DNA of 64,000 bases from Bacteroidota bacterium (GTDB lineage Bacteria; Bacteroidota; Bacteroidia; UKL13-3). Below the pieces are notes generated by a model. It ran no database searches. It was not told where the DNA came from and saw only the letters and a list, made by a program, of their open reading frames with translations. The DNA lies in NCBI GenBank assembly GCA_947464275.1, contig CANHVU010000001.1:122993-186992 (forward strand). The letters run 5' to 3'. Positions 3,964-61,114 of the stretch are shown one piece after another. Within the stretch, counting starts at the first letter, position 1, and each line of letters begins with the position of its first letter. Position numbers and translations under genes: made by a program.

Positions 3964-4914
3964 TTATATGTTTGTATCTACAATATCAACATTATTTGAT
4001 GTGTGTATAAACCCGTTGATTTGTTGGTTGTTGAAAGTAAAATCTATTTTACCTAATGCCAATCCTGCCCATCCAACTTGGTTTACTATTACTTCTTTTC
4101 CAATGGCGTTTTTTACCAAAGTTGGTTCTTTTAAAAATGTGTGCGTATGACCACCAATTATTAAATCAACATGTTTGGTTTGTGGTGCAAGGCTTAAATC
4201 GCCTATTTTACCTTCTTTGTAATTATAACCAAGGTGCGATAAGCAAATCACCAAATCACATTTTTTTTCTTGTTTTAAATAAGCAGCTACTTTATTTAAA
4301 TTTTCTACAGGGTCGTTGTATTTAATTTTACCATATAATTTTTCAGGAACCAATCCTTTTAGTTCAATTCCAACTCCTGTAACGCCAATTTTTAAACCAC
4401 CTTTTTTATAAATTTTATACGGCAAAACTTTGTTTTCAAGCAGTGTATCTTTAAAATCGTAATTGCAGTTCACAAAATCGAAGGTAGCATGTGGCATTTG
4501 TTTAAATAAACCATCTATTCCGTTGTCAAAATCATGGTTTCCAAGAGTTACACAATCGTAACCCATTTGACTCATTAATTTATATTCTAACTCGCCACCA
4601 TAAAAATTAAAGTAAGGCGTACCTTGAAATATATCTCCAGCATCAAGTAGTAAAATGTTTTCATTTTCTGCTCGGTATTTTTTTATCAGCGCAGCTCTAA
4701 ATTCTGCTCCGCCCATTCCTCCATTGTTTTTATCGGTTTTATCAAATGATTCAATGCGACTGTGCCAATCGTTGGTATGTAAAATAGTTAATTTGGTAGT
4801 ACCATTAGCTGCCAATAATTGATTAATTGGCGAAGCCATAAAAGCAGAACCCGCCAATAAAATACCCGATTTTTTTATAAAATCACGTCTATTTGATTTG
4901 TTTAATTCTTCCAT
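3964..4914 (-). CDS. metallophosphatase (5'-nucleotidase N-terminal calcineurin-like domain) with Tat signal
   Basis: Tat motif is NRRDFIKKSG. Metallophosphoesterase motifs LTILHTNDWH, GDIFQG, GNHDFDNG are present. Confidence 0.75.
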   Translation of the reverse strand: MEELNKSNRRDFIKKSGILLAGSAFMASPINQLLAANGTTKLTILHTNDWHSRIESFDKTDKNNGGMGGAEFRAALIKKYRAENENILLLDAGDIFQGTPYFNFYGGELEYKLMSQMGYDCVTLGNHDFDNGIDGLFKQMPHATFDFVNCNYDFKDTLLENKVLPYKIYKKGGLKIGVTGVGIELKGLVPEKLYGKIKYNDPVENLNKVAAYLKQEKKCDLVICLSHLGYNYKEGKIGDLSLAPQTKHVDLIIGGHTHTFLKEPTLVKNAIGKEVIVNQVGWAGLALGKIDFTFNNQQINGFIHTSNNVDIVDTNI

Positions 4915-5677
4915 CTAATTGTATATTTATTGGTTGAGCACTTTTATTTCTGTTTCTTAATTGTTGGATCAATGCCTCGCGCACCATTAAGTTTAACGAT
5001 GTAATTGACTTAGCATATTTCATTGGTTCGGTTTTATCGCCACCGCTTGCTACATAGTCGTTGGTAAGGATGTTATAAACTGCATTCTCATCAAATGGTT
5101 GACCATTAATGGTAATGTTTACCGCCTTATTGTTTTCAATATCAAAACGCAATTCTTTAGAACAAGGAGCACCATTATTTTGAGCCATTAAATCAAACAA
5201 TTGTTTGCAATATTTACCTTCCAATGTTACTACCACCAATTCATTATCAAAGGGTGCTAGTTCAAATATTTTACCTACAGTTATGTTCCCTTTTGCTATG
5301 CTTCCAACGCGTAAACCACCATTATTATAAACACAAAACCGAGGTCCTAAATTGGTGTTTAGTTTATTTGTCAACGATAAGAAATTTATTTGTTTGTAAG
5401 CAAATGCCATCAATTCATCGCAAACAAAATTGCCCAACGTTCCTTCGGGTAAATCTTTTTTCAAGTCTTGGTTATTGTAACACAAAACTTCATTCATGGA
5501 GCTATCAAGCCTAGCTTTGTATGGCGCAATGGTTTTAAAAGCCAACTCATCTCGCATTTGCAGCGAGTCTTTGTTAATTTTTATGTTTTGAGTTTGGGTA
5601 TTGGTAAGTGTAAGCTTTGGCGCACAAGCAGTAAAGCTAAAAACCAATAGCAATGTTATAAAAAAAGTATTTTTCAC
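4889..5677 (-). CDS. 5'-nucleotidase C-terminal domain lipoprotein
   Basis: Lipoprotein signal is LLLVFSFTAC. 5'-nucleotidase_C-like motifs (GNFVCDELM, YNNGGLRVG) are present. It appears to use a GTG start. It overlaps the downstream metallophosphatase gene by 26 nt. Confidence 0.65.
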   Translation of the reverse strand: MKNTFFITLLLVFSFTACAPKLTLTNTQTQNIKINKDSLQMRDELAFKTIAPYKARLDSSMNEVLCYNNQDLKKDLPEGTLGNFVCDELMAFAYKQINFLSLTNKLNTNLGPRFCVYNNGGLRVGSIAKGNITVGKIFELAPFDNELVVVTLEGKYCKQLFDLMAQNNGAPCSKELRFDIENNKAVNITINGQPFDENAVYNILTNDYVASGGDKTEPMKYAKSITSLNLMVREALIQQLRNRNKSAQPINIQLDGRIKQIK

Positions 5678-6912: not shown

Positions 6913-7005
6913 GAATATAAAGGTGCAATTACGGCAAATTAAATTTAAATAATCCTTTGTTTGATGATATTAAGTTATAATTTTGAATAACCAGGTTCAA
7001 CATTT

Positions 7006-7521: not shown

Positions 7522-7572
7522 TTTAAGGTATTTGAGAGTTTTAATTTATATTTGTCAAATTTTATAATAAAT

Positions 7573-9008: not shown

Positions 9009-9392
9009 TTGTCGCTTATTTTTTGCTTTAAAAAAATATAACTAGGTTTTTATTGATAGGTCATAATTGTAAATCTTTCCAAATAATTTCCTTCATTAAC
9101 TCCTTCATTTTTCATCGTTAATTACTATTATTATAGGTATGAATTAGCAAGTAAACTAAAATAAACAGTTAAGAATAATTGTTTATTTATGACTAGAAAT
9201 TATTTCTATTACAGGTATTCCTTTTCATAATGTGTAAAGTTTCGCACAAATAAACCAAAACACAAATGGCTTATTTTCAGACAACAATAACTTTTACATT
9301 TGAAATATTCACTTTTCTATTAATAAATGTACAGTTTTCAAATCTTGACAAAAAAAATACAATTTATATATTTGATTTACATTTAAAGAACA

Positions 9393-16608: not shown

Positions 16609-17172
16609 ATGAAAACACAAATAGTTTTAATAATACCAATAATACTTTTAACTATTTTAAGTTGCAAGGACGATTGCAAACCAAACTCAGTTGGCTCTGA
16701 AGAGAAATTATCTTCACAAAGAGTCCTTACACTTTTTCCTTATAAAGGAGATGAAAAATTACGGTTTTTGAAAAATGGAACAGACACAGTTATTTTTAGT
16801 AATACTGGTTTCATTGATGGATACAATTATGTTACAAGTCAAACTGATTGCCCATATCAGATAAAACTTCAATATAAAAGCATGACATTTATTGACAGCA
16901 TTGGTAGTAATAGATTTCAGCTTGTTAATTATAGAAATACATTTTATGGTAATGATTTTATGTTAAAACTCAATAATCAAATTTTATTTAATGACGCCTC
17001 GATAAGTTTCATTTTATTAGACCCACCATATAAATCAGTAACAATTAATAATAGAAAATACGACACTTTAACTTATGTAGAGAACAACAGTAGTTATGCC
17101 TATTATAAAACTTACACCACTGGTATGGTAAAGTTTAAAATTGATAATAATGTATTTGAGTTAGTTCCTTAA
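16609..17172 (+). CDS. hypothetical lipoprotein (paralog A)
   Basis: Lipobox ILSC. Shares architecture and motifs with the next gene (…DTVIFSN / …DTSVF, conserved Cys pair). Confidence 0.45.
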   Translation: MKTQIVLIIPIILLTILSCKDDCKPNSVGSEEKLSSQRVLTLFPYKGDEKLRFLKNGTDTVIFSNTGFIDGYNYVTSQTDCPYQIKLQYKSMTFIDSIGSNRFQLVNYRNTFYGNDFMLKLNNQILFNDASISFILLDPPYKSVTINNRKYDTLTYVENNSSYAYYKTYTTGMVKFKIDNNVFELVP

Positions 17173-17190
17173 AAGTTTAATAATTGTAAC

Positions 17191-17769
17191 ATGAAAAGAT
17201 TAATATTCATCATTCCTTTAATACTACTTTTGTTTAAAGCTTGTAAGCCTGATGAAGGATGCGTTGACAATAATTACTATGAATATCAGTTAGAAGAAGA
17301 TTTAAATGTGGTGCCTTACAAAGACTTTTCTGAACTGACTTTTATAAACAAAACAACACGCGATACTTCTGTTTTTATTGGCCAGGGGTATGTCTATGAT
17401 TGGGGAAAATATACCACCCAAGAAGAATGCCCTCAAACTTATAACCTGCAACGCAGGTATATAATATTTAACTGTACAAAGAATACTGATAAAATTAGTA
17501 TTGAAAATACATTTATTAAATATGGTATTAGAACAATGAACTTTAGTTGGAACAATAAAGGAAAAGCACTTTACCCAAGCTATTTTAGTGGTCCATTTGC
17601 TTACGATTCTCTAAATATTGAAGGTAAATATTATTATAATGTAAAAGATTTTACTTCAATAAAATCAACTACAGAGTTTGGCTTTTTATATACAAAAACT
17701 GAAGGTTTGATTAGATTGGTAAATCCATTAACCAATGACACCCTCAACTTAATAAGCCTCAAACTATGA
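17191..17769 (+). CDS. hypothetical lipoprotein (paralog B)
   Basis: Lipobox FKAC. Tandem paralog of 16609-17172. The 15-nt leader ATTGTAACATGAAAA is shared. Confidence 0.45.
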   Translation: MKRLIFIIPLILLLFKACKPDEGCVDNNYYEYQLEEDLNVVPYKDFSELTFINKTTRDTSVFIGQGYVYDWGKYTTQEECPQTYNLQRRYIIFNCTKNTDKISIENTFIKYGIRTMNFSWNNKGKALYPSYFSGPFAYDSLNIEGKYYYNVKDFTSIKSTTEFGFLYTKTEGLIRLVNPLTNDTLNLISLKL

Positions 17770-17794
17770 GAAAGATTAAAGTTTGATATGTAGC

Positions 17795-18247
17795 TTAATA
17801 CTTTATTCCCAATCTTTGGTAAACAAAGCCTAAAAGCCAAGCTGGCCCAATCAGTAAAAATTGTAAGTCTTTTAAAAACGAAGGTTTTTTGCCTTCTATT
17901 TTATGTCCGTAAAATTGGCCTAACCAAGCCATTACAAAAATGCCCAATGCTATTTTCCAAAGTGCTATAGGCAAGTGGCATAAAGCAATGGCTCCCATAA
18001 AACAAACAAAGTAAAACAACAACAAACCAATAGCCAATTTAGGCGATAATCGGGCATAAAATACCGTAGCAAATATCATTAATATGCCAGCTAAATTGAG
18101 CACTCCCGCTATAGGAACCAACGAAAATAAGCACACAATACTAAAAAATATACTTGGTACACATATCCAATGAATTAATTTATTAGTAGGGTTTTGGTGG
18201 CTTTCGCTATATTCGTTAAACCAATCTTGTATTGTTTTTTGAGCCAT
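17795..18247 (-). CDS. DUF962/Mpo1-like membrane protein
   Basis: Motif HQNPTNKLIHWICVP plus three or four TM helices. Length 150 aa. Confidence 0.5.
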   Translation of the reverse strand: MAQKTIQDWFNEYSESHQNPTNKLIHWICVPSIFFSIVCLFSLVPIAGVLNLAGILMIFATVFYARLSPKLAIGLLLFYFVCFMGAIALCHLPIALWKIALGIFVMAWLGQFYGHKIEGKKPSFLKDLQFLLIGPAWLLGFVYQRLGIKY

Positions 18248-18265
18248 AAATTTTATAGGTACTAA

Positions 18266-19669
18266 CTAGCTGTTTCTATAACTTTCAATTATTTCGGTAA
18301 GCGAAGTAGCTTGCTGTAATTTTGGTAATATTTCGTAAATCAAAAAATAATCGTCAAACTTTAAAAGCAAGCCAATTTCCAAGTGTTTTTTAGCCTCTTC
18401 TATTTGCCCGTTTTCATATAAGTAGCAAACCAAACGGTAATGGTATTGATGGCAATCGTAATTTGTTTTTACCGCTTCCAAAATCATTTCAATGGCTTCT
18501 TTGGTAAATCCTTGGGTATATTTTACAAAACTCCAATCTAACCAAGCTTCCATCATGGTAGCATCTAACTCTACCAATTTAGCATAAGTTTCTTCGCAGT
18601 TTTCTATTTGATTTAAGCGGTATTGTGTTTCGCCCAAAACCAATAAATATTCAGCATTATCTTGCTCCAGCATACATGCACGTTGGTAAAAAGGTAATGC
18701 TTCTTTGTTTTTATTTTCTTTTTCAAAAGTTAAACCTATTCCAAACCATGCCTCAGCAATATTTGGGTTCAAATCGGTAGCTTTTTTGTAATTGGCTCTA
18801 GCTTCCTCGTTTTTATTCATGCGCTCATAGCATCCGCCCAAATTACAATAAGTAATGGCATCTGCACCGTCTTCGGCTATGGCACTTTTGTATTCAGCTA
18901 TGGCTTCATCGTAACGTTCTAGCTCCACCAAAACATTGGCTTTATTAAATTTAGCAGCAGTAAATTCTTCATCAATTGCTAAGCAAAATTCATAAGCATC
19001 CAAGGCTTCTTCAAACCTTTCGGTTTTATAATAAATAATACCCAAATTATACCAGCCTGTGGTGCTATATGGTTCGTTATCTATTAATTGTTTGTAATAA
19101 AATATGGCATTTTCATAATCACCTAATTGGTTGAAACAATGCCCTATTTCGTAATACGATTGTTCAATTTCGGGAAACTCATTAATTAATATTTTAAAAT
19201 ATTCAACCGCTTTGGCATACATATCACAATCTTCGTAAACATAAGCTATTTCAAAAAGCATGTCCAAACGTTCATCGGTGTATTGCAGTGCTTTTTCAAA
19301 ACAAATAGCAGCCTCATTAAACTGGCGAAGATTAATTAAGGTTTCGCCTTTTAGCAAATGCAAATCGGTATTAAATGGCTCAAAATTTTCTACTGTTTCA
19401 AGTTCTTCTAAAGCGCTTTCATAGCGTTCGCCTAAAATATAAACTTCAGCTTTTTGTAATAAAAACTCGCTATGCGATTGGTATAAATTTAAAGCATAGG
19501 TAACAGCCGCAAAGGCTTTCTTTAACTTATTGGTTTGTATATAATAATCAATTATTCCTTCAAGAGTTTCAGCATCAAAGTATTCGGTGGTTTTGTTGCG
19601 CAACATTTTCTCGTAACGTTGTACATCATTGCTCACATCTTCACTTAAAAAGTCTTCACCATCCATCAT
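18266..19669 (-). CDS. tetratricopeptide repeat protein
   Basis: At least 10 TPR-like units (AxxxYxxAL..P pattern throughout). The track start at 19675 is a TTG; the ATG at 19669 is preferred. Confidence 0.7.
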   Translation of the reverse strand: MMDGEDFLSEDVSNDVQRYEKMLRNKTTEYFDAETLEGIIDYYIQTNKLKKAFAAVTYALNLYQSHSEFLLQKAEVYILGERYESALEELETVENFEPFNTDLHLLKGETLINLRQFNEAAICFEKALQYTDERLDMLFEIAYVYEDCDMYAKAVEYFKILINEFPEIEQSYYEIGHCFNQLGDYENAIFYYKQLIDNEPYSTTGWYNLGIIYYKTERFEEALDAYEFCLAIDEEFTAAKFNKANVLVELERYDEAIAEYKSAIAEDGADAITYCNLGGCYERMNKNEEARANYKKATDLNPNIAEAWFGIGLTFEKENKNKEALPFYQRACMLEQDNAEYLLVLGETQYRLNQIENCEETYAKLVELDATMMEAWLDWSFVKYTQGFTKEAIEMILEAVKTNYDCHQYHYRLVCYLYENGQIEEAKKHLEIGLLLKFDDYFLIYEILPKLQQATSLTEIIESYRNS

Positions 19670-19784
19670 ACGCAAAATTCAAATTTGTTTTACAAATATA
19701 AGTTCATAAATTATTTAAATGGTCTTTTTCAGGTCAGATATTTTATAAATATTTGAAAACTTGATTAAAACAAACCTTTCGTTC

Positions 19785-22784
19785 ATGAGAAAATTATTTT
19801 CAATTATTTTTTTACTTCCAATTTCAGTTCAACTAATGGCACAAAGTGCACCCAAAAAACTGAATCAAGCTAACTGGCAACAGCATGTGGCTTATACCAT
19901 TTCGGTTAAGCTCGATGATAATAAAAACTCCCTCGATGGGAAAATTAGTATGGTTTATACCAATAATTCTGCTGATGTGTTGAACCAAATTTACATGCAT
20001 GTGTGGCCAAATGCTTATGCCAATAGAAATACTGCATTTGCCAAGCAACATTTAGAAAATGGTAAAACAGATTTTTATTTTGCAAAACCCGAAGATCAAG
20101 GAAGTATTGATAGTTTGAATTTTGCGGTAAATAATTCTTCTATAAAATGGAACTTAACCAACGATATTGATATAGCTTTACTTACTTTAAACCAACCTTT
20201 AAAGCCTGGAGAAAAAATAACAATAAGTACACCTTTTTATGTGCAATTGCCAAAAGTTTATAGCCGTTTAGGTCATGAAAAACAATTGTATTGTATAACC
20301 CAATGGTTTCCAAAACCAGCAGTTTACGATGTGAATGGATGGAACCCAATCCCCTATTTAGATCAAGGTGAGTTTTACAGTGAATTTGGAAGCTTTGATG
20401 TAAGTATTACCTTGCCTAAAAACTATGTTTTAGCAGCTACAGGTAATTTACAAAACAAAGAAGAGGAAACCTTTTTAAACAAATTGGCAGAAAGCGAAGC
20501 CAAACAATTTGAAGAAAGACCTCTTTCAAGTAATGAATTTAAAACTGTGCGTTACTTACAAGATTCAGTTCACGATTTTGCATGGTTTGCTAGTAAAGAA
20601 TTTAATGTAAAAAAGGGAGAAGTAACCTTACAAAATGGTAAAAAAGTAACAACTTGGTTATTTGCCAAACGCATTAATAACAGCGGTATTGGTTACATAA
20701 ACGAAGGAGTAAAATATTACTCTGACCATATTGGAAATTATCCTTATAACCTAGCACAAGTAGTTATTACTCCGCTTGAAGCTGGAGGAGGAATGGAATA
20801 CCCAACCATTACCAATTGCGCTAGCATTGATAGAACAACCATTATTCATGAGGTGGGCCATAACTGGTTTTATGGAATTTTAGGAAGCAACGAACGCGAG
20901 CACCCTTGGATGGACGAAAGTTTGAACACTTATTATGAAAGCCGTTGCACGCAAGAAAAAGAGGATGAAACAAGGGCTAAAACGGCTGTACAAAAAGACT
21001 TTTTGAGAGATGTTTTCAATGTGGATTTAAAAGGTTTTGGTCAGGCAAGATTGCTTTATGGAATTACTGCACGAAAAAATGAAGACCAAGCTGGAAATTT
21101 GACTTCTACGAGTTATACAGACTTTAACTATGGCGCCATTATTTATGCCAAAAACCCCTTAAGTTTTTACATGCTGCAAAATTATTTAGGTAATGATAAG
21201 TTTGATGCCATGATGCATGCTTATTACGAAAAATGGAAATTTAAACACCCATTGCCAAACGATTTTAGAAACCATGCCGAAGCATTTACCAACGAAAATT
21301 TAAGTTGGTTTTTTGACGAAGTATTAGGTTCAACTAAAAAAATGGATTATAAGATAATAAGTGTTAAAAAGAACCAAGCTAAAGTTAAAAATGTAAGTGG
21401 TTTTAATGCTCCTTTTAGTTTATCATCCACCAATCAATACAATACACCCATCAAAACCAAACAATTTGAAGGATTTAAAGGTACAAAAACTTTTGACATT
21501 ACCTTGCTTTTAAATAATGATGGTGTGGCCAATAATATTCAAATCGACCAAAACCAATCGAGCATTGAGTTATATAGAAAAAATAATGCGCTGCACAAAC
21601 CTTTGAGCGTTCGTTTTTTACCAGCTTTAGAAAATCCTAATAAGCGCCAAATATTCTGTATTCCTCTTTATGCTTGGAATAAATACAATGGAAATATGCT
21701 AGGCTTGTTTATCAATAACGATTTTTTCCCTGACCAAAAAACAGAATTTAACTTTACGCCATTGTATAGTTTTACCACAAACGATTTAAATGGCTATTTA
21801 AGTATTGCAAGGAATTTTCATGTAAGCAGCAAAGTTTTAAAAAACATAAAAATTGGTATTAATACTTCGAGGTTTGGAACAAAAAGTTTTGATGAATCAA
21901 CTGATATTTCGTATGAAAAATTGGCTCCAAGTATTGAGTTAGATTTTAAACAAGCAACTGCACGCAGTTTGTTTGAAAACAAAGTAATTTTACGCCATGT
22001 TACCGTACTTGAAAACAAAACAAGTGAAGGCTATTTAAGTAATTTCAATAACCAAAGCATGTCGGCTATGGATATTACATACAAAATGGCCCATAACTTA
22101 GCTACTTACCCAACCTATTTTAAAACCAATCTTCAAGTTGGAACTGCTGATTATAGCTTTACCCGTTTAAGCTTTGAAGTAAATCAAGGCATTTCATATA
22201 ACGCTAGTAAAAAGAAAGCCAATATTCGCCTATTTGCGGGTACATTCTTAAACGAGCAAAGCACAGCAACAACTGATTTGAATCAAGGTAGAACTTATTT
22301 TCAAGCTGGAGGAACCAATGGCTATAACGATTATTTTTACGATGAAGCCATGTTTGGAAGAGCAGAAGGAAATCAACAACAAACTTTCTTAGCCCGCCAA
22401 GTGCTGAACAGAGATGCTGGTTTTAGAAATTTTGTTGCGATTGGTTCAAGTAGAACTTGGCTTACCGCTGCCAACATTACATTACCTTTTCCTTTTAAAT
22501 TACCAATTGGTTTTTATACCGATTGCGCATATGGCGAGGTTTTTATTACCGAGGCCAATACAAATAATTATTCTTATGAAACAAAATTTTTAACAGTAGG
22601 TGGTTTATACGTGAGTATAGCTAAAAATGTGTTTGAAATATATCTGCCTTTATTTGCTAGCCAAAATGTAATGGATGTTTGGAAACTTAACAATGGCTTC
22701 GAACATCCTTTTGAAAGAGCAAGTTTTATTTTAAACTTAAATGCAATTAACCCAATAAAATTGGCAAAAAATGCCATGAAATAA
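19785..22784 (+). CDS. M1-family (gluzincin) metallopeptidase domain protein, ~1000 aa, secreted
   Basis: Signal peptide MRKLFSIIFLLPISVQLMAQ. Zinc motif HEVGHNWFYG followed by WMDESLNTYYE 18 residues later (HExxH...E). The track start 19761 is an alternative. Confidence 0.6.
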   Translation: MRKLFSIIFLLPISVQLMAQSAPKKLNQANWQQHVAYTISVKLDDNKNSLDGKISMVYTNNSADVLNQIYMHVWPNAYANRNTAFAKQHLENGKTDFYFAKPEDQGSIDSLNFAVNNSSIKWNLTNDIDIALLTLNQPLKPGEKITISTPFYVQLPKVYSRLGHEKQLYCITQWFPKPAVYDVNGWNPIPYLDQGEFYSEFGSFDVSITLPKNYVLAATGNLQNKEEETFLNKLAESEAKQFEERPLSSNEFKTVRYLQDSVHDFAWFASKEFNVKKGEVTLQNGKKVTTWLFAKRINNSGIGYINEGVKYYSDHIGNYPYNLAQVVITPLEAGGGMEYPTITNCASIDRTTIIHEVGHNWFYGILGSNEREHPWMDESLNTYYESRCTQEKEDETRAKTAVQKDFLRDVFNVDLKGFGQARLLYGITARKNEDQAGNLTSTSYTDFNYGAIIYAKNPLSFYMLQNYLGNDKFDAMMHAYYEKWKFKHPLPNDFRNHAEAFTNENLSWFFDEVLGSTKKMDYKIISVKKNQAKVKNVSGFNAPFSLSSTNQYNTPIKTKQFEGFKGTKTFDITLLLNNDGVANNIQIDQNQSSIELYRKNNALHKPLSVRFLPALENPNKRQIFCIPLYAWNKYNGNMLGLFINNDFFPDQKTEFNFTPLYSFTTNDLNGYLSIARNFHVSSKVLKNIKIGINTSRFGTKSFDESTDISYEKLAPSIELDFKQATARSLFENKVILRHVTVLENKTSEGYLSNFNNQSMSAMDITYKMAHNLATYPTYFKTNLQVGTADYSFTRLSFEVNQGISYNASKKKANIRLFAGTFLNEQSTATTDLNQGRTYFQAGGTNGYNDYFYDEAMFGRAEGNQQQTFLARQVLNRDAGFRNFVAIGSSRTWLTAANITLPFPFKLPIGFYTDCAYGEVFITEANTNNYSYETKFLTVGGLYVSIAKNVFEIYLPLFASQNVMDVWKLNNGFEHPFERASFILNLNAINPIKLAKNAMK

Positions 22785-22826
22785 TCCTATTTGGAATAAA
22801 ATGAATAGCTTTGCAACGAAATATTG

Positions 22827-22889
22827 AATAGGCAATAGGCAATAGGCAATAGGCAATAGGCAATAGGCAATAGGCAATAGGCAATAGCT
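22827..22889. repeat. perfect heptanucleotide tandem repeat (AATAGGC/GGCAATA) x ~8.7
   Basis: Read directly. It is followed by degenerate heptamers GCTAAAG-GCTAGAA-GCCAGTT-GCCAGAA (22890-22916) and two AACTAAGAACTAA direct repeats before the ALDH start. Confidence 0.9.
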
Positions 22890-22961
22890 AAAGGCTAGAA
22901 GCCAGTTGCCAGAAGCAAAATAACTAAGAACTAACTAACTATAAACTAAGAACTAATAAAA

Positions 22962-24509
22962 ATGAGTGCAACACAAACCTTTTCTCTTGATTTTTTAAAA
23001 GAGTTAAACTTAAAAGAAATAAACGAAGGAACATCAACAGGGCAAAATCATTTTGCTGATGCAAACGCTGAAGTAAAAGAAATTTACTCGCCTGTAGATG
23101 GAAAATTAATAGGTAAAGTAAAATTTACCACCGAAGCTGAGTACAATAAAGTAATTGCAACTGCTGAAGAAGCTTTTAAAACTTGGCGTAAAATGCCTGC
23201 CCCAAAACGTGGTGAGATTGTGCGTCAATACGGAAATTTATTGCGCGAATACAAACAACCTTTAGGCCAATTGGTGAGCTACGAAATGGGTAAGAGCTTA
23301 CAAGAAGGTTTGGGCGAAGTACAAGAAATGATTGACATCTGCGATTTTGCAGTAGGTTTAAGCCGTCAGTTAACGGGCTCAACTATGCATAGCGAAAGAC
23401 CAAACCACAGAATGTATGAGCAATACCATCCACTTGGAATAGTTGGAATCATTTCGGCTTTTAATTTCCCTGTTGCAGTTTGGAGTTGGAATAGTATGTT
23501 AGCCGCTGTTTGTGGTGATGTGTGTGTTTGGAAACCATCAGAAAAAACACCACTTTCAGCAATTGCTTGTCAGTTGTTAATGGCTAAAATTTTAAAGGAA
23601 AATAATTTACCAGAAGGGATTTTCTGTTTGGTAAATGGCGATTATAAAGTAGGTGAATTAATGAGCAAAGATGAACGAGTTCCTTTGGTTTCAGCAACTG
23701 GTTCTACCCGCATGGGCCGCATAGTTGGTGCCACTGTAGCACAACGTTTTGGAAAAGCTTTATTAGAATTAGGTGGAAACAATGCCATTATTTTAACCCC
23801 AAATGCCAATTTAGATTTAGCCATGGTGGGTGTGGTTTTTGGTGCAGTAGGAACAGCAGGCCAACGTTGTACTACCACACGCAGGTTAATTATTCACGAA
23901 AGTATTTACGAAAAAGTAAAAGATAAATTAGTGAATGCTTACAAGCAATTAACCATTGGAAATCCTTTAACTGGAAACTTGGTTGGACCATTAATTGATA
24001 AAGATGCAGTAAATGCTTACTTAAATGCCATTGAGCAAGTAAAAGCCGAAGGTGGAAATGTACTTTGTGGTGCTGAGGTTATGAAAGGCGAAAGTTACGA
24101 AAGTGGTTGTTATGTAAAACCAACTATTTGCGAAGCTAAAAACAGCTTTAAAATAGTACAACACGAAACTTTTGCGCCTATTCTGTATATCATGAAATAC
24201 ACAGATTTTGATGACGCTATCGATATGCAAAATGGCGTTAAACAAGGTTTAAGCTCTAGTGTGTTTACCGATAATTTGCAAGAAGCAGAAGCATTTTTAG
24301 CACATTGGGGCAGCGATTGCGGAATTGCAAACGTAAATATTGGAACCAGTGGTGCTGAAATTGGCGGTGCATTTGGTGGCGAAAAAGAAACAGGTGGCGG
24401 CCGCGAAAGTGGAAGCGATAGCTGGAAAGCATACATGCGTAGACAAACAAATACCATTAACTACGGTAAAGAATTACCATTAGCTCAAGGCATTAAATTT
24501 GACCTTTAG
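22962..24509 (+). CDS. aldehyde dehydrogenase family protein (ALDH7/piperideine-6-carboxylate dehydrogenase-like)
   Basis: Motifs [11 protein letters not shown], the catalytic Cys region [10 protein letters not shown] and ELGGNNAII. Length 515 aa. Confidence 0.7.
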
Positions 24510-24552
24510 TTAAATGTTCACTGAGCGGAGCCGAAGTGAATGATTGATTTGA

Positions 24553-24593
24553 AAAACCTTGTTAAACTTTATTGCTTTAGCAAGGTTTTTTTG
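24553..24593 (+). terminator. rho-independent terminator
   Basis: Stem AACCTTG...CAAGGTT followed by TTTTTTT. Confidence 0.65.
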
Positions 24594-24644
24594 TGCATTA
24601 TTGTTTCCTAAAATACCAAGCAATTATTCAGACCATTTAACTAC

Positions 24645-25091
24645 ATGCTTTTAAAAAACAATTCATTTCCCGAGATTATTTCAGCGCCAGAGGCTGATTA
24701 TTTATTTATAAAAACATCAGGAATTGAAAATGCTGGTTTGGGTTTATTTACGGCTATAAATATTTATAAAAATGAAATAATAGCCATTTATAGAGGAGAA
24801 ATAATTGGCACAAAAGAAGCCGAGGCAAGAGCACTTAATAAACAAAACACTTATTTTATGAACTTACCCAATGGCAAAATTTTAGATGCGCAACAAACAG
24901 ATAGTTTTGCCAAATACGCTAATGATGCAAATGGCAGTTTGCCTATTGTTTATAAAAACAATGCTTTCATTACTTTAAACCATAAAAACGAAGTTTGTTT
25001 GGTGGCTTTAAAAAATATAAAAGCACTGTCTGAAATATTTTGCAGTTATGGAAATGGATATTGGCAAAACCCCAAGTTATTTAATAAATAA
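24645..25091 (+). CDS. SET domain-containing protein (putative protein lysine methyltransferase)
   Basis: Motifs GLGLFTA...IYRGEII (GxG/β-core), the NHxCxPN-equivalent region KYANDANGS, and the post-SET-like C-terminus EIFCSYGNGYW. Confidence 0.55.
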   Translation: MLLKNNSFPEIISAPEADYLFIKTSGIENAGLGLFTAINIYKNEIIAIYRGEIIGTKEAEARALNKQNTYFMNLPNGKILDAQQTDSFAKYANDANGSLPIVYKNNAFITLNHKNEVCLVALKNIKALSEIFCSYGNGYWQNPKLFNK

Positions 25092-25156
25092 AAATGAATC
25101 ATCCAAATACTAAAAAACTATACTTCAATTTAACCTATAAACCTCTGTAGGTAAAG

Positions 25157-28100
25157 CTAGTTTTTTAATATTTTAGCAGTGAAAATTTCATTTTTACCCA
25201 CTAATTTAATTACATAAAAACCACTTTTAAATCCTCCTAAATCAATGCTTTCTATAGTTGAATTTTTATGTCCCAAAAGCACCTCTTTTCCGCTAAAATC
25301 ATAAACGATATAATCAAGTTGAAGTTCTGAATCAATATTAAATATACCTAAAGTTGGATTAGGATAAATCCTGATTTCATTATCAGCATTAATACCTTTA
25401 ATGGAAGTATATTTAAATTCAAATTCATCACTTAAAGTTCCGCAGCCATTTGAACTATCAATACGCACGCTATAAAATCCAAAATTAGTGGGTTGAAAGG
25501 TTTGTAAATTAGCCCCAGTAATTGGAGAACCATTAAAGTACCATTGATAGGCTTGCCCCGTACTAGCTTTCAGAATATTACCAGATACCAACGAAACGGT
25601 AGGCTTTATAGGTCCACTAGTTACCGAAACTACTTTAACCAATGTATCGGTACAGTTATTAGCAGCAATTACTTTAAGTTTAATAAAGTATTTACCGGGA
25701 TAACCAAAGTTCTTGGTTGTGGGGAAGGTAGCAGTTGAAAAAGTATTGTCACCAAAACTCCATTCGTTGCCAACAACCCAACTTTCTGTACCTCCGTTTG
25801 ATGTATTATTTAATTCAAAAGCATTATTTAAAAAACATTGATTTAAATAATTCACTTCAAAATCGGCCTTCGGTTTTATATTATTTACTACCGTATTTTT
25901 ATATAAAACTTCCGTACATCCTACATCATTAGTAGCAACCAATTTAACATTAAAAACGCCTGTTTTTTTGTAAATATGTCTTGGGTTGGGTAGTGTGGTT
26001 GTGGCTGTGCTGTCACCAAAGTTCCATACAAATGTATTACCTGAACTTAAAGTAGTATTTATAAATGCTACAATCGAAGAGTCGCAAGTATTGTTAACAG
26101 TTTCAGCTTCAAAATTTACCAGTGAATCTTTAAAAATAATATCCATGGTATCTTTTGCTGCTGGGCACGGCCCAAAAGGATCATTGGTAGACAATACAAT
26201 AGAAACTAATTTATTTGCAAAATCAGTAGTTGTAGGTCTATACTTAGTACTCATTGTATCTATTTTGTCAAAGGTTCCTTTTCCATTAATGGTACTCCAA
26301 TTAAGACTAGTAGCAGTGCCACTAATATTACCCATTAAGTCAATTCTGTTATTGGTTGCACACACTGTTTGGTCTAATCCTGCATCAGCAAAAGCGGGTT
26401 TAAAAAACGTAACAGTTATGGAGTCTTTAGCTTCATTACAAGGCCCAACTGGGTCACTCGAGATTAAGGTAAAGGTTATTTTCCCTAAGTTAATATCTGT
26501 TTGTGTAGGATAGTATGTAGTAACAGAATCAAATGAACTATAATTAATTGAATTTGATGAAAGCCATTTGGCAAAAACAGCGGCACTATTATAACTTCCA
26601 TTTAAATTAATAGGACTATTACCACAAATACTTTGATTTTGACCAGCATTAACTATTGGCTTTTGGTATAATATTACATTTAAAGTATCACTTACTGAAC
26701 TACAAGGACCCAAAGGATCGTTGGTAGTCAATATTAATTTAACTAGCCCACTTTGCTTATCACTATTACTAAACGTGTATATGGTTACTAAAGAATCAGA
26801 ATTGTTAAATGAGCCACTACCCGTGCTAGTCCATTTTGCAGAAGTAGCCGAGCCATTTATGGAACCAATTAACAATATTGAGTTATTTGAATTACATATT
26901 GCTTGGTCTAAACCTGCATTTGCAAAGGCCATTCTATTAATAAATATTTTAGTTGAATCTATGGAATTAGAGCATGAATTGAAAGGATCATTGGTAATAA
27001 AAGTAAAAGTTACATGACCTAATGTTTTATCATTTTCACTTGGAAAGTAAATAGGAGTAAGTGATAAATTATTATTAAAACCACCTGAGCCGTTCGTGTA
27101 CCAAGCAGCATTTCCGCTTACATAGTTTGTATTAGCATTCAGATATATTAAATCATTTTCGCAAATTGAAGTATCATTAATTATATTTGATACAGCACTT
27201 AGATTAAAAGATAACTGTATGGTGTCAAAAGCACTTTCGCAAGGCCCAACTGGATTATTTGTACCTAGTATTAGCTTTATGCTCCCCAACTGCTTATCGG
27301 CATTACTGGGAAAATACCTTGCGTTTAGTATGGTAGAATCACTGAAATAACCAGTTCCTGTTGTTTTCCATTTTGCACTATTGGCGGCACCGCCAATAAA
27401 ACCATTAAGTAAAACACTTGATTCATTTGTGCAGATGGTTTGGCTAATTCCAGCACTTACTGTTGCCAAAGAATTGATAGTAATTAAAATGGAATCACTT
27501 ACTGATTTACAATCACCTGCAGGATCATCAGATTTATATCTAACATAGAAAAACTTATTGCTTATATCAACTAGATTAGGCATATAGGTAGTAACTGTAT
27601 CAAATGAAATGTAAGCAGGATTGTTTGAAACAGTCCAACTGGCAAAACTTACAACATTATTAAAAGAACCTTTTAAATTTACCAAATCGTTTTCACAAAT
27701 TACTTGGTCGGGTCCAGCATCAATTTGCGCTGGATTTTCAAAAGTTATTTTCAACGAATCTACCCCAAAACTACAAGGACCAGAGGGGTCGTTGGTTGTT
27801 AATGTTAGATATATAAAACCTTTATTTTTATCAAAAACAGAAGGATAGTAATTTGTGTTTAAAACATTAACGTTATCAAAAGTTCCACTACCTGAAGTAC
27901 TCCAACTTGCAGAAGTTGCAGAACCACTAATTTGCCCATTCAAAGCAGCAAATAGTGTTGTTTTACATATCCCAATATCATTCCCAGCATCTGCTATTGC
28001 TAAGGAATCAATTGTTACCTCCATACTGTCAACCGTGTTATCGCAAATGAAATTAGGATTACTTGTTTTAAATGTAAACATAAGTTTTCCTAATAATACA

Positions 28101-29194
28101 TCTGAATTGCTTGGGTAATAAACAGGATTCACTAAGGTGTTATTTGAAAAATAGCCCGTACCATTGGTTGTCCAAATTTTTGAACCTGAATTTGCAGTGG
28201 TACTGGCATTTAAAAACAGAAAATCATTTTTACAAATTCTTTGATCTACCCCCGCATTTGAAATTGCAAGTGGATTAAAATAAATTTCAACAGTATCGGC
28301 CACAAAAGAGCATGGACCTGCTGGGTCATCGGTTGTTAATATTAATTTTACAAAACCATTTAATATATCATTATTGCTAGGTATATAATTTGTATTTAAG
28401 TTGGTAGAGTTATTAAATATACCGGTACCTAATGAACGCCAACTAGCACTAGATGCTGACCCTCCAATACTTCCATTCAAATTAACTGAAGTTGTATTAT
28501 TACATAAATTTTGATTTACCCCCGCATTTACTATTGGCATTTGTAAAAAGTAAACAGTCATGGAATCTAACGCAGCTGCGCATGGACCTGCAGGATCATT
28601 GGTTGTTATTGTTAAAACAACAGAACCATTAGCAATATCTGCTATACTTGGTGTATAAACCGCATTTAAGGTTGAGGAATTAACAAATGAACCGCTTCCC
28701 GAAGTTGTCCAATTTATGTATGGTGCCACACTATTAACAGTTCCATTTAAATTAATTATGCTATTTGCGCACACCGTTTGATTTGTTCCAGCATCTACAA
28801 AGGGTCTAGCATTGATATTAATATTAGCCCCATTGTCTGTACCTACAACAAAAGGATCATTAGCCAAAACCCTCACTTTATATAAATAACTTGTACTACA
28901 ATTAAGGGGTATTGTACACAAAATATTTCCGCTGCTAGTTGATGTTATTTGACCAATATTTATTGGCGAAATAAAATTTCCATTTGTGTCACTTAATTGT
29001 ACCGCAAAAATATTGGATGGATTAAAACTGCCATTTATAACGTAACTAATGTTTACGGTTTCACCAGCACAAAATGAATTTACAACCAAAGAATTGGTTG
29101 TAATTGTTTGTGCATTTATTTTGAAACTTAATAGTGTTGTAAAAGTTAAAATTACTATTAATAGAATAGAATTTATATGGGATTTTGTTGGCAT
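25157..29194 (-). CDS. large T9SS-secreted surface protein: ~10 tandem ~85-aa repeats, PKD/Ig-like region, type-A T9SS C-terminal sorting domain
   Basis: Signal peptide is present. The repeat consensus is NAG.DQ.IC......L.G...G.A.S..W...G.G.F......N..Y.PS..D...G...L.L.T.DP.GPC...D...I.F. The CTD is IRIYPNPTLGIFNI...FYVIKLVGKNEIFTAKILKN. Confidence 0.8.
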   Translation of the reverse strand: MPTKSHINSILLIVILTFTTLLSFKINAQTITTNSLVVNSFCAGETVNISYVINGSFNPSNIFAVQLSDTNGNFISPINIGQITSTSSGNILCTIPLNCSTSYLYKVRVLANDPFVVGTDNGANININARPFVDAGTNQTVCANSIINLNGTVNSVAPYINWTTSGSGSFVNSSTLNAVYTPSIADIANGSVVLTITTNDPAGPCAAALDSMTVYFLQMPIVNAGVNQNLCNNTTSVNLNGSIGGSASSASWRSLGTGIFNNSTNLNTNYIPSNNDILNGFVKLILTTDDPAGPCSFVADTVEIYFNPLAISNAGVDQRICKNDFLFLNASTTANSGSKIWTTNGTGYFSNNTLVNPVYYPSNSDVLLGKLMFTFKTSNPNFICDNTVDSMEVTIDSLAIADAGNDIGICKTTLFAALNGQISGSATSASWSTSGSGTFDNVNVLNTNYYPSVFDKNKGFIYLTLTTNDPSGPCSFGVDSLKITFENPAQIDAGPDQVICENDLVNLKGSFNNVVSFASWTVSNNPAYISFDTVTTYMPNLVDISNKFFYVRYKSDDPAGDCKSVSDSILITINSLATVSAGISQTICTNESSVLLNGFIGGAANSAKWKTTGTGYFSDSTILNARYFPSNADKQLGSIKLILGTNNPVGPCESAFDTIQLSFNLSAVSNIINDTSICENDLIYLNANTNYVSGNAAWYTNGSGGFNNNLSLTPIYFPSENDKTLGHVTFTFITNDPFNSCSNSIDSTKIFINRMAFANAGLDQAICNSNNSILLIGSINGSATSAKWTSTGSGSFNNSDSLVTIYTFSNSDKQSGLVKLILTTNDPLGPCSSVSDTLNVILYQKPIVNAGQNQSICGNSPINLNGSYNSAAVFAKWLSSNSINYSSFDSVTTYYPTQTDINLGKITFTLISSDPVGPCNEAKDSITVTFFKPAFADAGLDQTVCATNNRIDLMGNISGTATSLNWSTINGKGTFDKIDTMSTKYRPTTTDFANKLVSIVLSTNDPFGPCPAAKDTMDIIFKDSLVNFEAETVNNTCDSSIVAFINTTLSSGNTFVWNFGDSTATTTLPNPRHIYKKTGVFNVKLVATNDVGCTEVLYKNTVVNNIKPKADFEVNYLNQCFLNNAFELNNTSNGGTESWVVGNEWSFGDNTFSTATFPTTKNFGYPGKYFIKLKVIAANNCTDTLVKVVSVTSGPIKPTVSLVSGNILKASTGQAYQWYFNGSPITGANLQTFQPTNFGFYSVRIDSSNGCGTLSDEFEFKYTSIKGINADNEIRIYPNPTLGIFNIDSELQLDYIVYDFSGKEVLLGHKNSTIESIDLGGFKSGFYVIKLVGKNEIFTAKILKN

Positions 29195-29462
29195 TTGTCT
29201 TTTTATTAATTAAAAACTAACTTAAAATTACTTCTAAAGTATGGCTTTTTGTTTTAGTAACAAAAGAAATAGGTAATCCGCAGTTAAATGTATTTTAATT
29301 GCCAATATTTTTATTTAACCTGCATTGAGTTTTAAACAGATTAAACTAAAAGGTTTAATGGTTAAAGTAACCAACATTAAAAAACTAAAATCAACAAAAA
29401 AATCAAAATTGATAGTTTGGGTTTGCTTTTTTATTCGCAAATTCGCGGCTTACTTTTCAATC

Positions 29463-31703
29463 ATGAATCAATCTATTCCATCGGGCAATCTAGCCTCACT
29501 TGAACAAGCACAGCAATTAGGTCTTAGACCAGAAGAATTTGAAAAAATTAAAGAAATTTTAGGTCGTACACCCACTTTTACCGAAATGAGTATTTACTCA
29601 GTAATGTGGAGCGAGCATTGTTCATATAAAAACTCTATAGTTTGGTTAAAAACATTGCCTAAAAAAGGTGAAAAAATGTTGGCCGAAGCAGGTGAAGAAA
29701 ATGCTGGATTAATTGATATTGGCGATGGATTGGCTTGTTGTTTTAAAATTGAAAGTCATAATCACCCAAGTGCTATTGAACCTTACCAAGGGGCTGCAAC
29801 GGGTGTGGGCGGAATTAACCGCGATATTTTTTCGATGGGAGCTCGCCCAATTGCGCAACTAAATTCATTACGTTTTGGAAACATTGAAAACGAAAGAACA
29901 AAATGGTTAGTTCGTGGAGTAGTTAAAGGAATTGGAAATTATGGAAATGCATTTGGTATTCCTACTGTCGGTGGCGAAGTATATTTTGATGATTGCTACC
30001 AAATCAACCCTCTGGTAAATGCCATGAGTGTGGGAATAGCAAAGGTTGGTAAAACCGTTTCTGCCATTGCGGAAGGTGTTGGTAATCCAGTTTATATTTT
30101 TGGTTCAGCTACTGGTAAAGATGGAATTCATGGTGCTGCATTTGCTAGTAAAGATATTACAGAAGATTCAGCAAAAGATTTGCCTTCGGTTCAAGTAGGC
30201 GATCCTTTCTGGGAAAAATTGATTTTGGAAGCCAGCATGGAATTATTGGAAACCGATGCCATTGTTGGTATGCAAGATATGGGTGCTGCGGGAATTACTT
30301 GCTCAACTAGCGAGATGAGTGCAAAAAGTGGAACAGGAATGACGGTGTGGTTGGATAAAGTTCCTATGCGTCAAGAAGGCATGAAAGATTGGGAAATTCT
30401 CTTATCAGAAAGCCAAGAGCGCATGTTGGTGATTGTGAAAAAAGGAATGGAAGCCCAAGTTGAAAAAGTATTAGAAAAATGGGATTTAACCTATAATATC
30501 ATTGGTGAAGTAACTGATTCAGGTAGGGTTCAATATTACATGAACGATGAATTAAGAGCTGATATTCCGGGCGAAAGTTTGGTTTTAGGTGGTGGTGCTC
30601 CTGTTTATCACCGTGAATACACCGAGCCAAAATACTTTAAAGAAATTGAAAAATTTGATATAAACAATATAGCAGATTGTAAACCAGAGCAAGCTATTAA
30701 TGTCGCTAAATTCCTGGCTGCACACCCAAATATTGCATCGAAAAGATGGGTGTATAACCAATATGATAGCATGGTAGGAACCATAAACCAAACTACCAAT
30801 GCACCTAGTGATGCATCGGTGGTAAAAGTTAAAGGAACCGACAAGTCAATTGCTATGACGGTAGATTGTAACAGCCGTTTTGTTTGGGCTGACCCATTTG
30901 TAGGCGGACAAATTGCAGTGGCAGAAGCAGCACGTAATTTGGTTTGCTCAGGTGCAGAGCCTGCGGCAATTACCAATTGCTTAAACTTTGGAAATCCTTA
31001 TAACCCTGAAGTGTATTACCAATTTGTATATGCTATAAAAGGCATGGGCGAAGCTTGTAAAAAGTTTGATACGCCTGTAACAGGTGGAAACGTAAGTTTT
31101 TATAACCAAAGCAGCGACAATGATGCTGTTTTCCCAACTCCAACCATTGGTATGGTGGGTTTAATTGGAGATAACAAAAAACACATGACCATGGATTTTA
31201 AAAATGCAGGTGATGTAATTTATATGCTAGGCAATAGCAAAAACGATATTGGTTCATCGCATTATTTGGCGCATTACCATAAAGTACAATACTCTCCAGC
31301 ACCGTACTTTAACTTAGACGAAGAGCACCAATTACACAAAGCTTTATTAGGTTTAATCAATGGCAATCATATCGAATCAGCTCACGATGTTAGCGAAGGT
31401 GGTTTGTTTATTACTTTACTAGAAAGTGCTATGAACAGAAATCTTTCATTCAACATTCAACATTCAACATCCAACATTCGTTTAGATGCTTTCTTATTTG
31501 GTGAAGCTCAAGGGCGTGTGGTAATTTCAGTAAAAACAAACAATTGTGCCCAAGTTGAAAGTTACTTAAATGGATTAAATATGCCATTTGAAAAACTTGG
31601 AACTGTTACTGAAAATAATATTCAAGTAAATGATATTGATTTTGGCAAAACTGCTGATTTGGCAAACATTTACAACAATTCTTTAGCTGAAAAATTAGCT
31701 TAA
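29463..31703 (+). CDS. purL: phosphoribosylformylglycinamidine synthase subunit PurL (FGAM synthase II)
   Basis: PurL N-terminus MNQSIPSG...[20 protein letters not shown], then SEHCSYK and two AIR-synthase-related domains. The track ORF start at 29325 adds a 46-aa extension that is probably not translated. Confidence 0.9.
31447..31479. repeat. in-CDS heptamer microsatellite (CATTCAA) x4.3 within purL
   Basis: Read directly. It encodes ...[11 protein letters not shown].... Confidence 0.85.
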
Positions 31704-39910: not shown

Positions 39911-39939
39911 AAAAGCTGCTTTTTAAGCAGCTTTTTTTA
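39911..39939 (+). terminator. rho-independent terminator
   Basis: Stem AAGCTGCTT/AAGCAGCTT followed by TTTTTTT. Confidence 0.7.
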
Positions 39940-39964
39940 TGTTTGCCGCTTAATAAATTAAACC

Positions 39965-42424: not shown

Positions 42425-42457
42425 CTGCCAGAGGCTAGAGGCTAGCTGCCAGAAGCC
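42425..42457. repeat. degenerate GC-rich heptamer element GCCAGAG-GCTAGAG-GCTAGCT-GCCAGAA-GCC, dispersed copy of 22892-22916
   Basis: 22/25 identity to AGGCTAGAAGCCAGTTGCCAGAAGC at 22892-22916. Confidence 0.6.
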
Positions 42458-61034: not shown

Positions 61035-61114
61035 AAAAATGTAAAAGTCTGAATAAAATTATTCTTGCACAGTATTTTTATAAAATATATTTGAGCCAAA
61101 TAAAATTAAAAACA

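Follow-up and report, generated by a model that had tools for sequence, protein, structure and literature searches.

A heptanucleotide repeat array in the inferred 5′ leader of a predicted L-piperidine-6-carboxylate dehydrogenase gene varies in copy number among Bacteroidota strains

Arrays of heptamers have been reported from bacterial spacers since 1990, in the form of the cyanobacterial STRRs, and they are the commonest class of long SSRs in many genomes. To our knowledge, their function is unexplained outside a few pathogen loci. One such array lies between an M1-family peptidase gene and a predicted metabolic gene in the 64,000-nt stretch of a Bacteroidota contig analyzed here (the window). 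It raises the question of whether the number of its units tunes the gene downstream or whether the units are neutral debris of slippage. An initial annotation, made from the letters alone, had read it as a slipped-strand arrangement that shifts and rotates promoter elements or, alternatively, as a periodic binding array for a regulator.

Composition of the spacer and its presumed promoter

The array occupies part of a 177-nt intergenic spacer upstream of an aldehyde dehydrogenase (ALDH) gene (Table 1). The product of this gene is predicted to be a lysine-catabolism enzyme, L-piperidine-6-carboxylate dehydrogenase, from its matches to Pfam Aldedh (E = 5e-133) and to the NCBIfam equivalog NF050084 (837 bits against a cut-off of 730). 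A neighboring protein carries a T9SS sorting domain, and the relatives described below are labeled Bacteroidota/Bacteroidia MAGs, which marks the organism as an uncultured member of the Bacteroidota. Stacked repeat types do precede the ATG at 22962, as had been annotated, and TRF returned 8.7 perfect copies of AATAGGC (period 7, 100% matches, score 122). This consensus reads GGCAATA in another register, which makes the array (GGCAATA)8 plus partial units, and the array ends 75 nt from the ATG. It is followed by the heptads GCTAAAG GCTAGAA GCCAGTT GCCAGAA GC, of the form GCYAGNN, which are probably older units that have decayed, and by a run of AACTAA-type heptads that includes two exact copies of AACTAAGAACTAA (22922-22934 and 22944-22956). 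The heptad phase, with GC at positions 1 and 2 of each 7, is continuous from 22831 to about 22921, which indicates that nearly the whole spacer is built of heptads. The 14-mer at the end of the spacer, AAACTAAGAACTAA, is presumed to be an A-rich translation-initiation region.

Table 1. Features of the ALDH spacer and the genes on either side of it
Feature	Position	Strand	Remark
M1-family peptidase gene	19761..22784	+	upstream of the array
Invariant non-coding block, peptidase stop to end of −7 box	22785..22813	+	29 nt, identical across strains
Putative −7 promoter box, Bacteroidota type, TAGCTTTG	22806..22813	+	sole TAnnTTTG match in the spacer; 5′ of the array
Predicted transcription start	22819..22822	+	about 6-9 nt past the −7 box; placed from the box position
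Perfect heptanucleotide array (AATAGGC)x8.7	22827..22887	+	hypervariable part, by TRF and strain comparison
Degenerate GCYAGNN heptads	about 22887-22916	+	in phase with the perfect array
AACTAA-type degenerate heptads	22921..22956	+	TRF: period 7, 4.9 copies, 75% matches
Invariant 14-mer	22943..22956	+	just 5′ of the ATG; identical across heptad-carrying loci
Predicted L-piperidine-6-carboxylate dehydrogenase gene (ALDH7-type, 515 aa)	22962..24509	+	downstream of the array

The array is far beyond chance. With up to 2 mismatches allowed, (GGCAATA)2 had 8 matches against 0.97 expected, a number that none of 100 shuffles reached, and the GCYAGNNGCYAG pattern, with 0.09 matches expected in the window, was matched 5 times. 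The lag-7 match fraction was 0.63 in the ALDH spacer, compared with 0.316 pooled over the other 29 spacers of the window, which showed no lag-7 excess and hence no sign of being built of heptads. A scan of the whole window at periods of 4 to 12 found near-perfect arrays at period 7 only, in the ALDH spacer and in purL. The AACTAA-type motif precedes the ALDH gene only and was not enriched before the other start codons of the window, and it was therefore ruled out as a general motif of that position.

The TAnnTTTG consensus of the −7 box reportedly goes back to Bayley in 2000 for Bacteroides fragilis and to Chen in 2007 for Flavobacterium. A match to it was dropped as stand-alone evidence for a promoter, as the motif is common in the window (108 matches against 132 expected, i.e., no enrichment). 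We gave weight to the box because it is conserved and because its like is tightly spaced at other genes: in ten other genes of the window, a sense TAnnTTTG lies 18, 18, 19, 20, 21, 23, 25, 27, 31, and 38 nt from the ATG. This spacing suggests that leaders are normally very short in this organism, and TAnnTTTG appears to behave as a real promoter element in the genes of the window. Examples of the box are found at 6978-6985, 7547-7554, 9367-9374, 39938-39945, and 61086-61093, most of them reading TATATTTG. The outliers in leader length are ALDH, at 148 nt, and a gene at 4889-5557, at 124 nt.

Conservation points to the same box. The 37-mer TGAAATAATCCTATTTGGAATAAAATGAATAGCTTTG (22777-22813), of which 29 nt are non-coding, was identical in the window and in all seven relatives in which it was checked (L001, L083, L217 to L220, and L223), and TAGCTTTG was also retained in L084 despite a diverged surrounding spacer. 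In the ALDH gene, 94 of 201 fourfold sites (47%) are invariant over five lineages, and a naive estimate of the chance of 29 invariant non-coding bases is thus 0.468^29, or about 3e-10. The invariant block is presumed to be the ALDH promoter. Neither a TAnnTTTG nor a sigma-70-like site was found on the + strand in the stretch from the array to the ATG. Because the −7 box and the invariant block lie upstream of the array and no promoter-like motif lies downstream, we infer that the array would be transcribed as the first part of a 148-nt ALDH leader, beginning 5 to 8 nt beyond the predicted transcription start. This leader would be 4 to 8 times longer than is typical for the genome. No + strand terminator was found between the M1 peptidase gene and the array, so that read-through transcripts would carry the array too. 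With the promoter upstream, copy number would alter the length of the leader and not the geometry of the promoter; the proposal that a change of units shifts or rotates promoter elements is at odds with the only −7 box of the spacer being upstream of the array, within the 29-nt invariant block.

Several other roles for the leader were examined and set aside. A lysine riboswitch or another known RNA would fit the pathway, but Rfam gave no match in the window at gathering thresholds and none in 22700-23050 at E ≤ 1. Leader folds of seven heptad-leader strains had z-scores of −1.2 to +1.3 against shuffles, none of them significant, and neither a stable structure nor a terminator or attenuator was supported. 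Each unit contains a TAG, which closes all three + strand frames and makes a uORF or an extended N-terminus impossible.

Variation of the array between strains

Related loci were recovered by exact-protein look-ups in other assemblies. The initial annotation had called for a comparison of copy number across strains, and it proved not to be identical: perfect arrays ranged from 2 to 9.7 units and leaders from 75 to 166 nt (Table 2), with the counts taken from metagenome assemblies, in which arrays that exceed the assembler k-mer can be miscounted and individual counts beyond about 55 nt call for confirmation in the reads. The differences were of whole units, in agreement with the slipped-strand change that had been suggested. 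L001 is the same as the window over 16969-29923 (about 12.9 kb) save for one extra AATAGGC, giving 9.7 copies against 8.7. The ALDH protein is the same in L217 and L218/L219, as are 206 of 207 fourfold sites, yet the array is 42 nt (6 units) longer in L217, which has (ATAAGCA)7 and some extra units, than in L218, which has (ATAAGCA)3. L002 is 100% identical to the window, and its contig stops 55 nt into the array, like a k-mer break.

Table 2. Perfect arrays and leader lengths, from the −7 box to the ATG, in the window and its relatives (assembly-derived counts)
Locus	Array	Leader (nt)
Window	(ATAGGCA)8.7	148
L001	(ATAGGCA)9.7	155
L083	(ATAGACG)6.4	100
L217	(ATAAGCA)7	166
L218/L219	(ATAAGCA)3	124
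L220/L221	(ATAAGCA)2	92
L223	(ATAAGCA)2	75

The unit itself differs by lineage, being ATAGGCA, ATAAGCA, or ATAGACG. L083, whose ALDH gene has 95% nt identity, carries the last of these at the position of the array and has no GCYAGNN heptads. AGTTGCCAGA was retained in L217, L218, L220, and L223 and is missing from L083. AAACTAAGAACTAA was identical in the window and eight heptad-leader loci (L001, L083, L217 to L221, and L223). Overall, the heptad region is hypervariable, and a constrained block flanks it on either side. Despite a divergence of 20-35% at fourfold sites, none of the seven related heptad-carrying assemblies has fewer than 2 units or a leader shorter than 75 nt; the persistence of both, together with the kept AGTTGCCAGA, could reflect selection on the leader instead of neutrality.

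Arrays were absent from the sister clades. A sister clade (L214, L215, L216, and L222; 87% nt identity) has TACATTTG and a 51-nt leader with no array, and L084 has a 46-nt leader with no array. L085 has a near-copy of AAACTAAGAACTAA and GCCAG-type heptads only, in inverted orientation. The array-free ALDH leader of the sister clade (L214, L215, and L222, at about 2950-2976) contains a 7-bp hairpin, GCGGCTA...TAGCCGC in L215, which the other two strains keep by G-U-compatible changes (GTGGCTA...CAGCCGC and GCGGCTA...CAGCTGC).

Three further routes to strain-level data were tried. In a metagenome scan with the ALDH protein, the matches listed were all at ≤74% identity and none had an upstream heptamer array. 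A look-up with the neighboring SET-domain protein gave contigs that begin inside the ALDH gene and do not reach the array. In ALDH relatives at 88% and 85% identity, the upstream region was not syntenic.

The region downstream of the ALDH gene varies as well. In L083 (1703-1745), L217 (4549-4600), and L220 (4549-4610), degenerate heptads directly follow the ALDH stop codon (TAGTTGG TAGTTAA TGGTTGT CAGTTGA TAGACCA TAGACGA...) and are followed by an intrinsic terminator, a segment that is absent from the window. These heptads differ between L217 and L218 by a 7-nt indel (CGATAGT), and their GATAGAC motif matches the unit of the upstream array of L083. Gene content beyond them varies among close strains (L085, L214, L215, L217, L218, and L220 compared with 24510-29194 of the window): the SET-domain gene is adjacent or displaced, and different T9SS-tailed proteins, an OMP beta-barrel, or an RHS/SpvB protein may occur. 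Such differences indicate that the ALDH gene borders a variable region.

Explanations for the array and its variation

The array belongs to the heptanucleotide long SSRs or STRR-like heptamer arrays, a class already reported in Bacteroidetes, and it has all four features of that class, i.e., perfect 7-nt copies, a non-coding location, whole-unit polymorphism, and other heptamers adjacent. Like the LSSRs (Mrazek 2007), the STRR heptamers, and the Xanthomonas GGGAATC and Nostoc GGGGAYT arrays, it consists of perfect intergenic 7-nt units stacked with differing heptamers and is variable in length and sequence between close relatives, a variation that is wide in Xanthomonas and Nostoc and for which polymerase slippage has been proposed (PMC4692102). 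Unlike the Xanthomonas and Nostoc units, the ALDH-leader unit is not G-rich, and no G-quadruplex is possible. It also shares mixed heptamers, shorter array-free spacers in relatives, and contigs ending in arrays with the Bacteroidetes arrays of MacGregor 2015, who described TAACTGA and further heptamers as direct repeats in Beggiatoaceae, Cyanobacteria, and five Bacteroidetes (PMC4679880). The AACTAAG, AACTAAC, and TAACTAT heptads at the ALDH ATG resemble the start-codon-adjacent TAACTGA sets of the same study (PMC4679880); the TAACTGA repeats, however, occur in forward orientation near the start codons of many genes, whereas the main array here has the unit GGCAATA and lies 75 nt from the ATG, and the AACTAA-type heptads of the window precede the ALDH gene alone. 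What this locus adds to the LSSR/STRR class is an allelic series between strains, with the presumed promoter and initiation region as an invariant frame.

The explanation that we favor, and consider fairly probable, is a slippage-driven heptanucleotide SSR in the 5′ leader with turnover of its units and probably little effect on expression. Replication slippage would expand the heptamer array within the untranslated 5′ leader of the dehydrogenase mRNA, and the segment between the −7 promoter and the A-rich initiation region would evolve as 7-nt units are gained, lost, and replaced, with old units decaying to the GCYAGNN and AACTAA heptads. What would follow directly is the polymorphism of leader length among strains (75-166 nt). 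Under this explanation slippage would be the cause of the variation and the array would be close to neutral; its effect on expression is most likely small or nil. On this reading the array would be neither an on/off switch nor a changer of promoter spacing.

The main rival, possible though unlikely, is that the array acts as a 5′ UTR rheostat, the copy number of which heritably tunes the stability or translation of the dehydrogenase mRNA while selection keeps the locus variable. Models for such tuning are hmw1A of Haemophilus influenzae and the (AGAT)n tract in the uspA2 leader of Moraxella catarrhalis. Like the (ATCTTTC)n of hmw1A and hmw2A, the array is a 7-nt SSR whose unit number differs among isolates (PMC12721329, PMC8262952); the hmw repeats are transcribed in the 5′ UTR, where the ALDH array is placed by inference, and hmw1A expression is inversely proportional to the 5′ UTR heptamer count (PMC12721329). 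A tuning role would also fit the position of the array in the inferred leader between two invariant elements, its 2 to 9.7 copies with no member of the heptad clade lacking all heptads, the unusual length of the leader, and the ability of one repeat unit to pair with AGUUGCC in each strain that has AGUUGCC. However, the hmw repeats are one arm of a long hairpin that is cut by RNase III (PMC12721329, PMC8262952), and no long stable repeat hairpin of this type was predicted in the ALDH leader. The fold z-scores given above are nonsignificant, and the only stem is one of 5-6 bp, formed by AGUUGCC (22904-22910) with the last GGCAAU unit (22880-22885), and this GGCAAU/GCAAU-AGUUGCC pairing recurs among strains with no covariation and is absent from L083, in which the AGUUGCC arm is wholly missing. 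Also against tuning, the gene putatively encodes a metabolic, housekeeping catabolic enzyme and not a surface or contingency product, and arrays of this class favor neither the 5′ leader nor the sense orientation. What speaks for this reading nonetheless is that every member of the heptad-carrying clade has kept 2 units or more and a leader of no less than 75 nt.

Less likely still is a fuller claim, namely that the array, at the very 5′ end of the leader, has been selected as a heritable rheostat that sets the expression of a core lysine-degradation gene in a free-living population of freshwater Bacteroidota. If this were true, SSR-based contingency variation would extend beyond pathogens and beyond surface genes, and the long-unexplained heptamer arrays of bacteria would gain a demonstrated function. 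Phase variation in Bacteroidota is known mainly from invertible promoters. The strains form a natural allelic series (2, 2, 3, 7, 6.4, 8.7, and 9.7 units, as assembled), with the array-free sister clades as a control, and this series within an invariant frame makes array tuning versus neutral slippage debris directly testable.

Binding of a regulator to the repeats has a known counterpart at the ctxAB genes of Vibrio cholerae, the heptads of which are sites for ToxT and H-NS. The ctxAB (TTTTGAT)n is likewise a heptad array near a promoter with a strain-dependent number of units, but its conserved units are regulator-binding sites upstream of the core promoter (bioRxiv 10.1101/2021.05.14.444153), unlike the ALDH array, which lies downstream of the −7 box and the unit of which is not conserved. 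A periodic binding site in the leader, either for a DNA-binding roadblock regulator past the start site or for an RNA binder such as a cold-shock-domain protein or S1, is an improbable explanation. A single-strand RNA-binding protein was proposed by MacGregor for the TAACTGA repeats (PMC4679880), and the invariant AAACTAAGAACTAA resembles those of them that stand next to start codons; in addition, the units share a core ATA-R-N-C-N across strains, and the window has another site with GCYAGNN heptads. Yet close strains disagree at 3 of the 7 positions of the unit, the GCYAGNN heptads of L085 are inverted and those at 42427 run antisense to the gene downstream, AACTAA is not enriched before other start codons, and the other spacers have no lag-7 signal. 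The regulator-binding array suggested at the outset thus finds no support in a unit that differs between strains and in GCCAG heptads that are reversed in L085 and at the second window site. Even less probable is a phase switch in which a change of units alters the spacing or helical phase of promoter or activator elements and turns ALDH transcription up or down: although copy number varies and, by simple geometry, each 7-bp step would turn the sites on either side by some 240 degrees, all of the conserved −7 box and its invariant block is upstream, no TAnnTTTG or sigma-70-like + strand site occurs from the array to the ATG, and the array does not separate a −33 from a −7 element. It is scarcely credible that the array, or at least its copy-number differences, arose in assembly. 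The L002 contig breaks off after exactly 55 nt of the array, as is characteristic of a break in a de Bruijn graph at k = 55, and there are suspicious single-base insertions in the purL gene of L001, but seven related assemblies from different samples and pipelines have heptad arrays at one place, several arrays are shorter than 50 nt (L217, L218, L220, and L223), and the differences in unit sequence are impossible by miscount, so that for the array itself an artifact is excluded. In practical terms, heptamer arrays break short-read assemblies and may be miscounted.

Heptamer arrays in other genomes and elsewhere in the window

Heptamers predominate among long bacterial SSRs (PMC4679880, PMC4692102). 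In Gramella, Aequorivita, and Elizabethkingia, stacked heptamer arrays are absent from the closest relatives, and Cyanothece strains differ by 7-nt indels, with contigs that often stop inside the arrays (PMC4679880). The initial annotation had proposed a search of the genome for other (GGCAATA)n tracts; in the window, near-perfect period-7 arrays were limited to the ALDH spacer and purL. In a species-representative genome collection, (GGCAATA)≥3 occurred in more than 120 other genome stretches among the matches listed, mainly of Cyanobacteria, Bacteroidota, and Planctomycetota with scattered others; Nostoc, Coleofasciculus, Planktothrix, Moorena, and many Bacteroidota were among these hosts. 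In the first 80 listed loci, 160 of 179 perfect tandem arrays had period 7, and beyond those selected by the query the flanks had 68 further heptamer arrays, against 19 arrays with any other period between 2 and 15.

Across the 120 listed loci, the arrays were mostly intergenic, convergent spacers included, and by crude ORF calls their orientation to the downstream gene was not significantly biased (47 sense versus 32 antisense). In the 29 listed loci labeled Bacteroidota, only 2 of 33 arrays had a −7 box within 45 nt reading into them, which ruled out that arrays in other Bacteroidota generally begin right after a −7 box. A Bacteroidota contig with a 70% identical ALDH (L081, 5356-5558) has five stacked heptamer arrays in a spacer between convergent genes, namely (AGTTAGC)3, (GTTGGCA)3, (GATAACA)4.9 and 4.0, and (AACAGAT)4.6, indicating that heptamer arrays are not confined to 5′ regions.

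The second array of the window, (CATTCAA)x4.7 with 92% matches, lies in the purL coding sequence (31447-31479), where a slip of one unit would frameshift the last ~80 of the 781 residues of PurL. Since homologues are equal in length over this segment (SFNIQNSKSNIR, NFEIRNPKSEIR), it is a near-periodic variable loop and not an insertion. Elsewhere in purL, L001 (12963-13548) differs from the window (29924-30503) by 62 substitutions, mostly spaced by multiples of 3, and by six insertions of one base each, none of them beyond the initial 600 nt of this stretch. The pattern points to an assembly error or to a segment that is recombined or chimeric between strains.

At 42427-42457, four GCYAGNN heptads (GCCAGAG GCTAGAG GCTAGCT GCCAGAA GC) end in TGCCAGAAGC, as in the ALDH leader. 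They lie 10 nt past the stop codon of a 189-aa gene that has no annotation, and an EamA transporter gene is found 265 nt downstream of them; the heptads are antisense to both genes.
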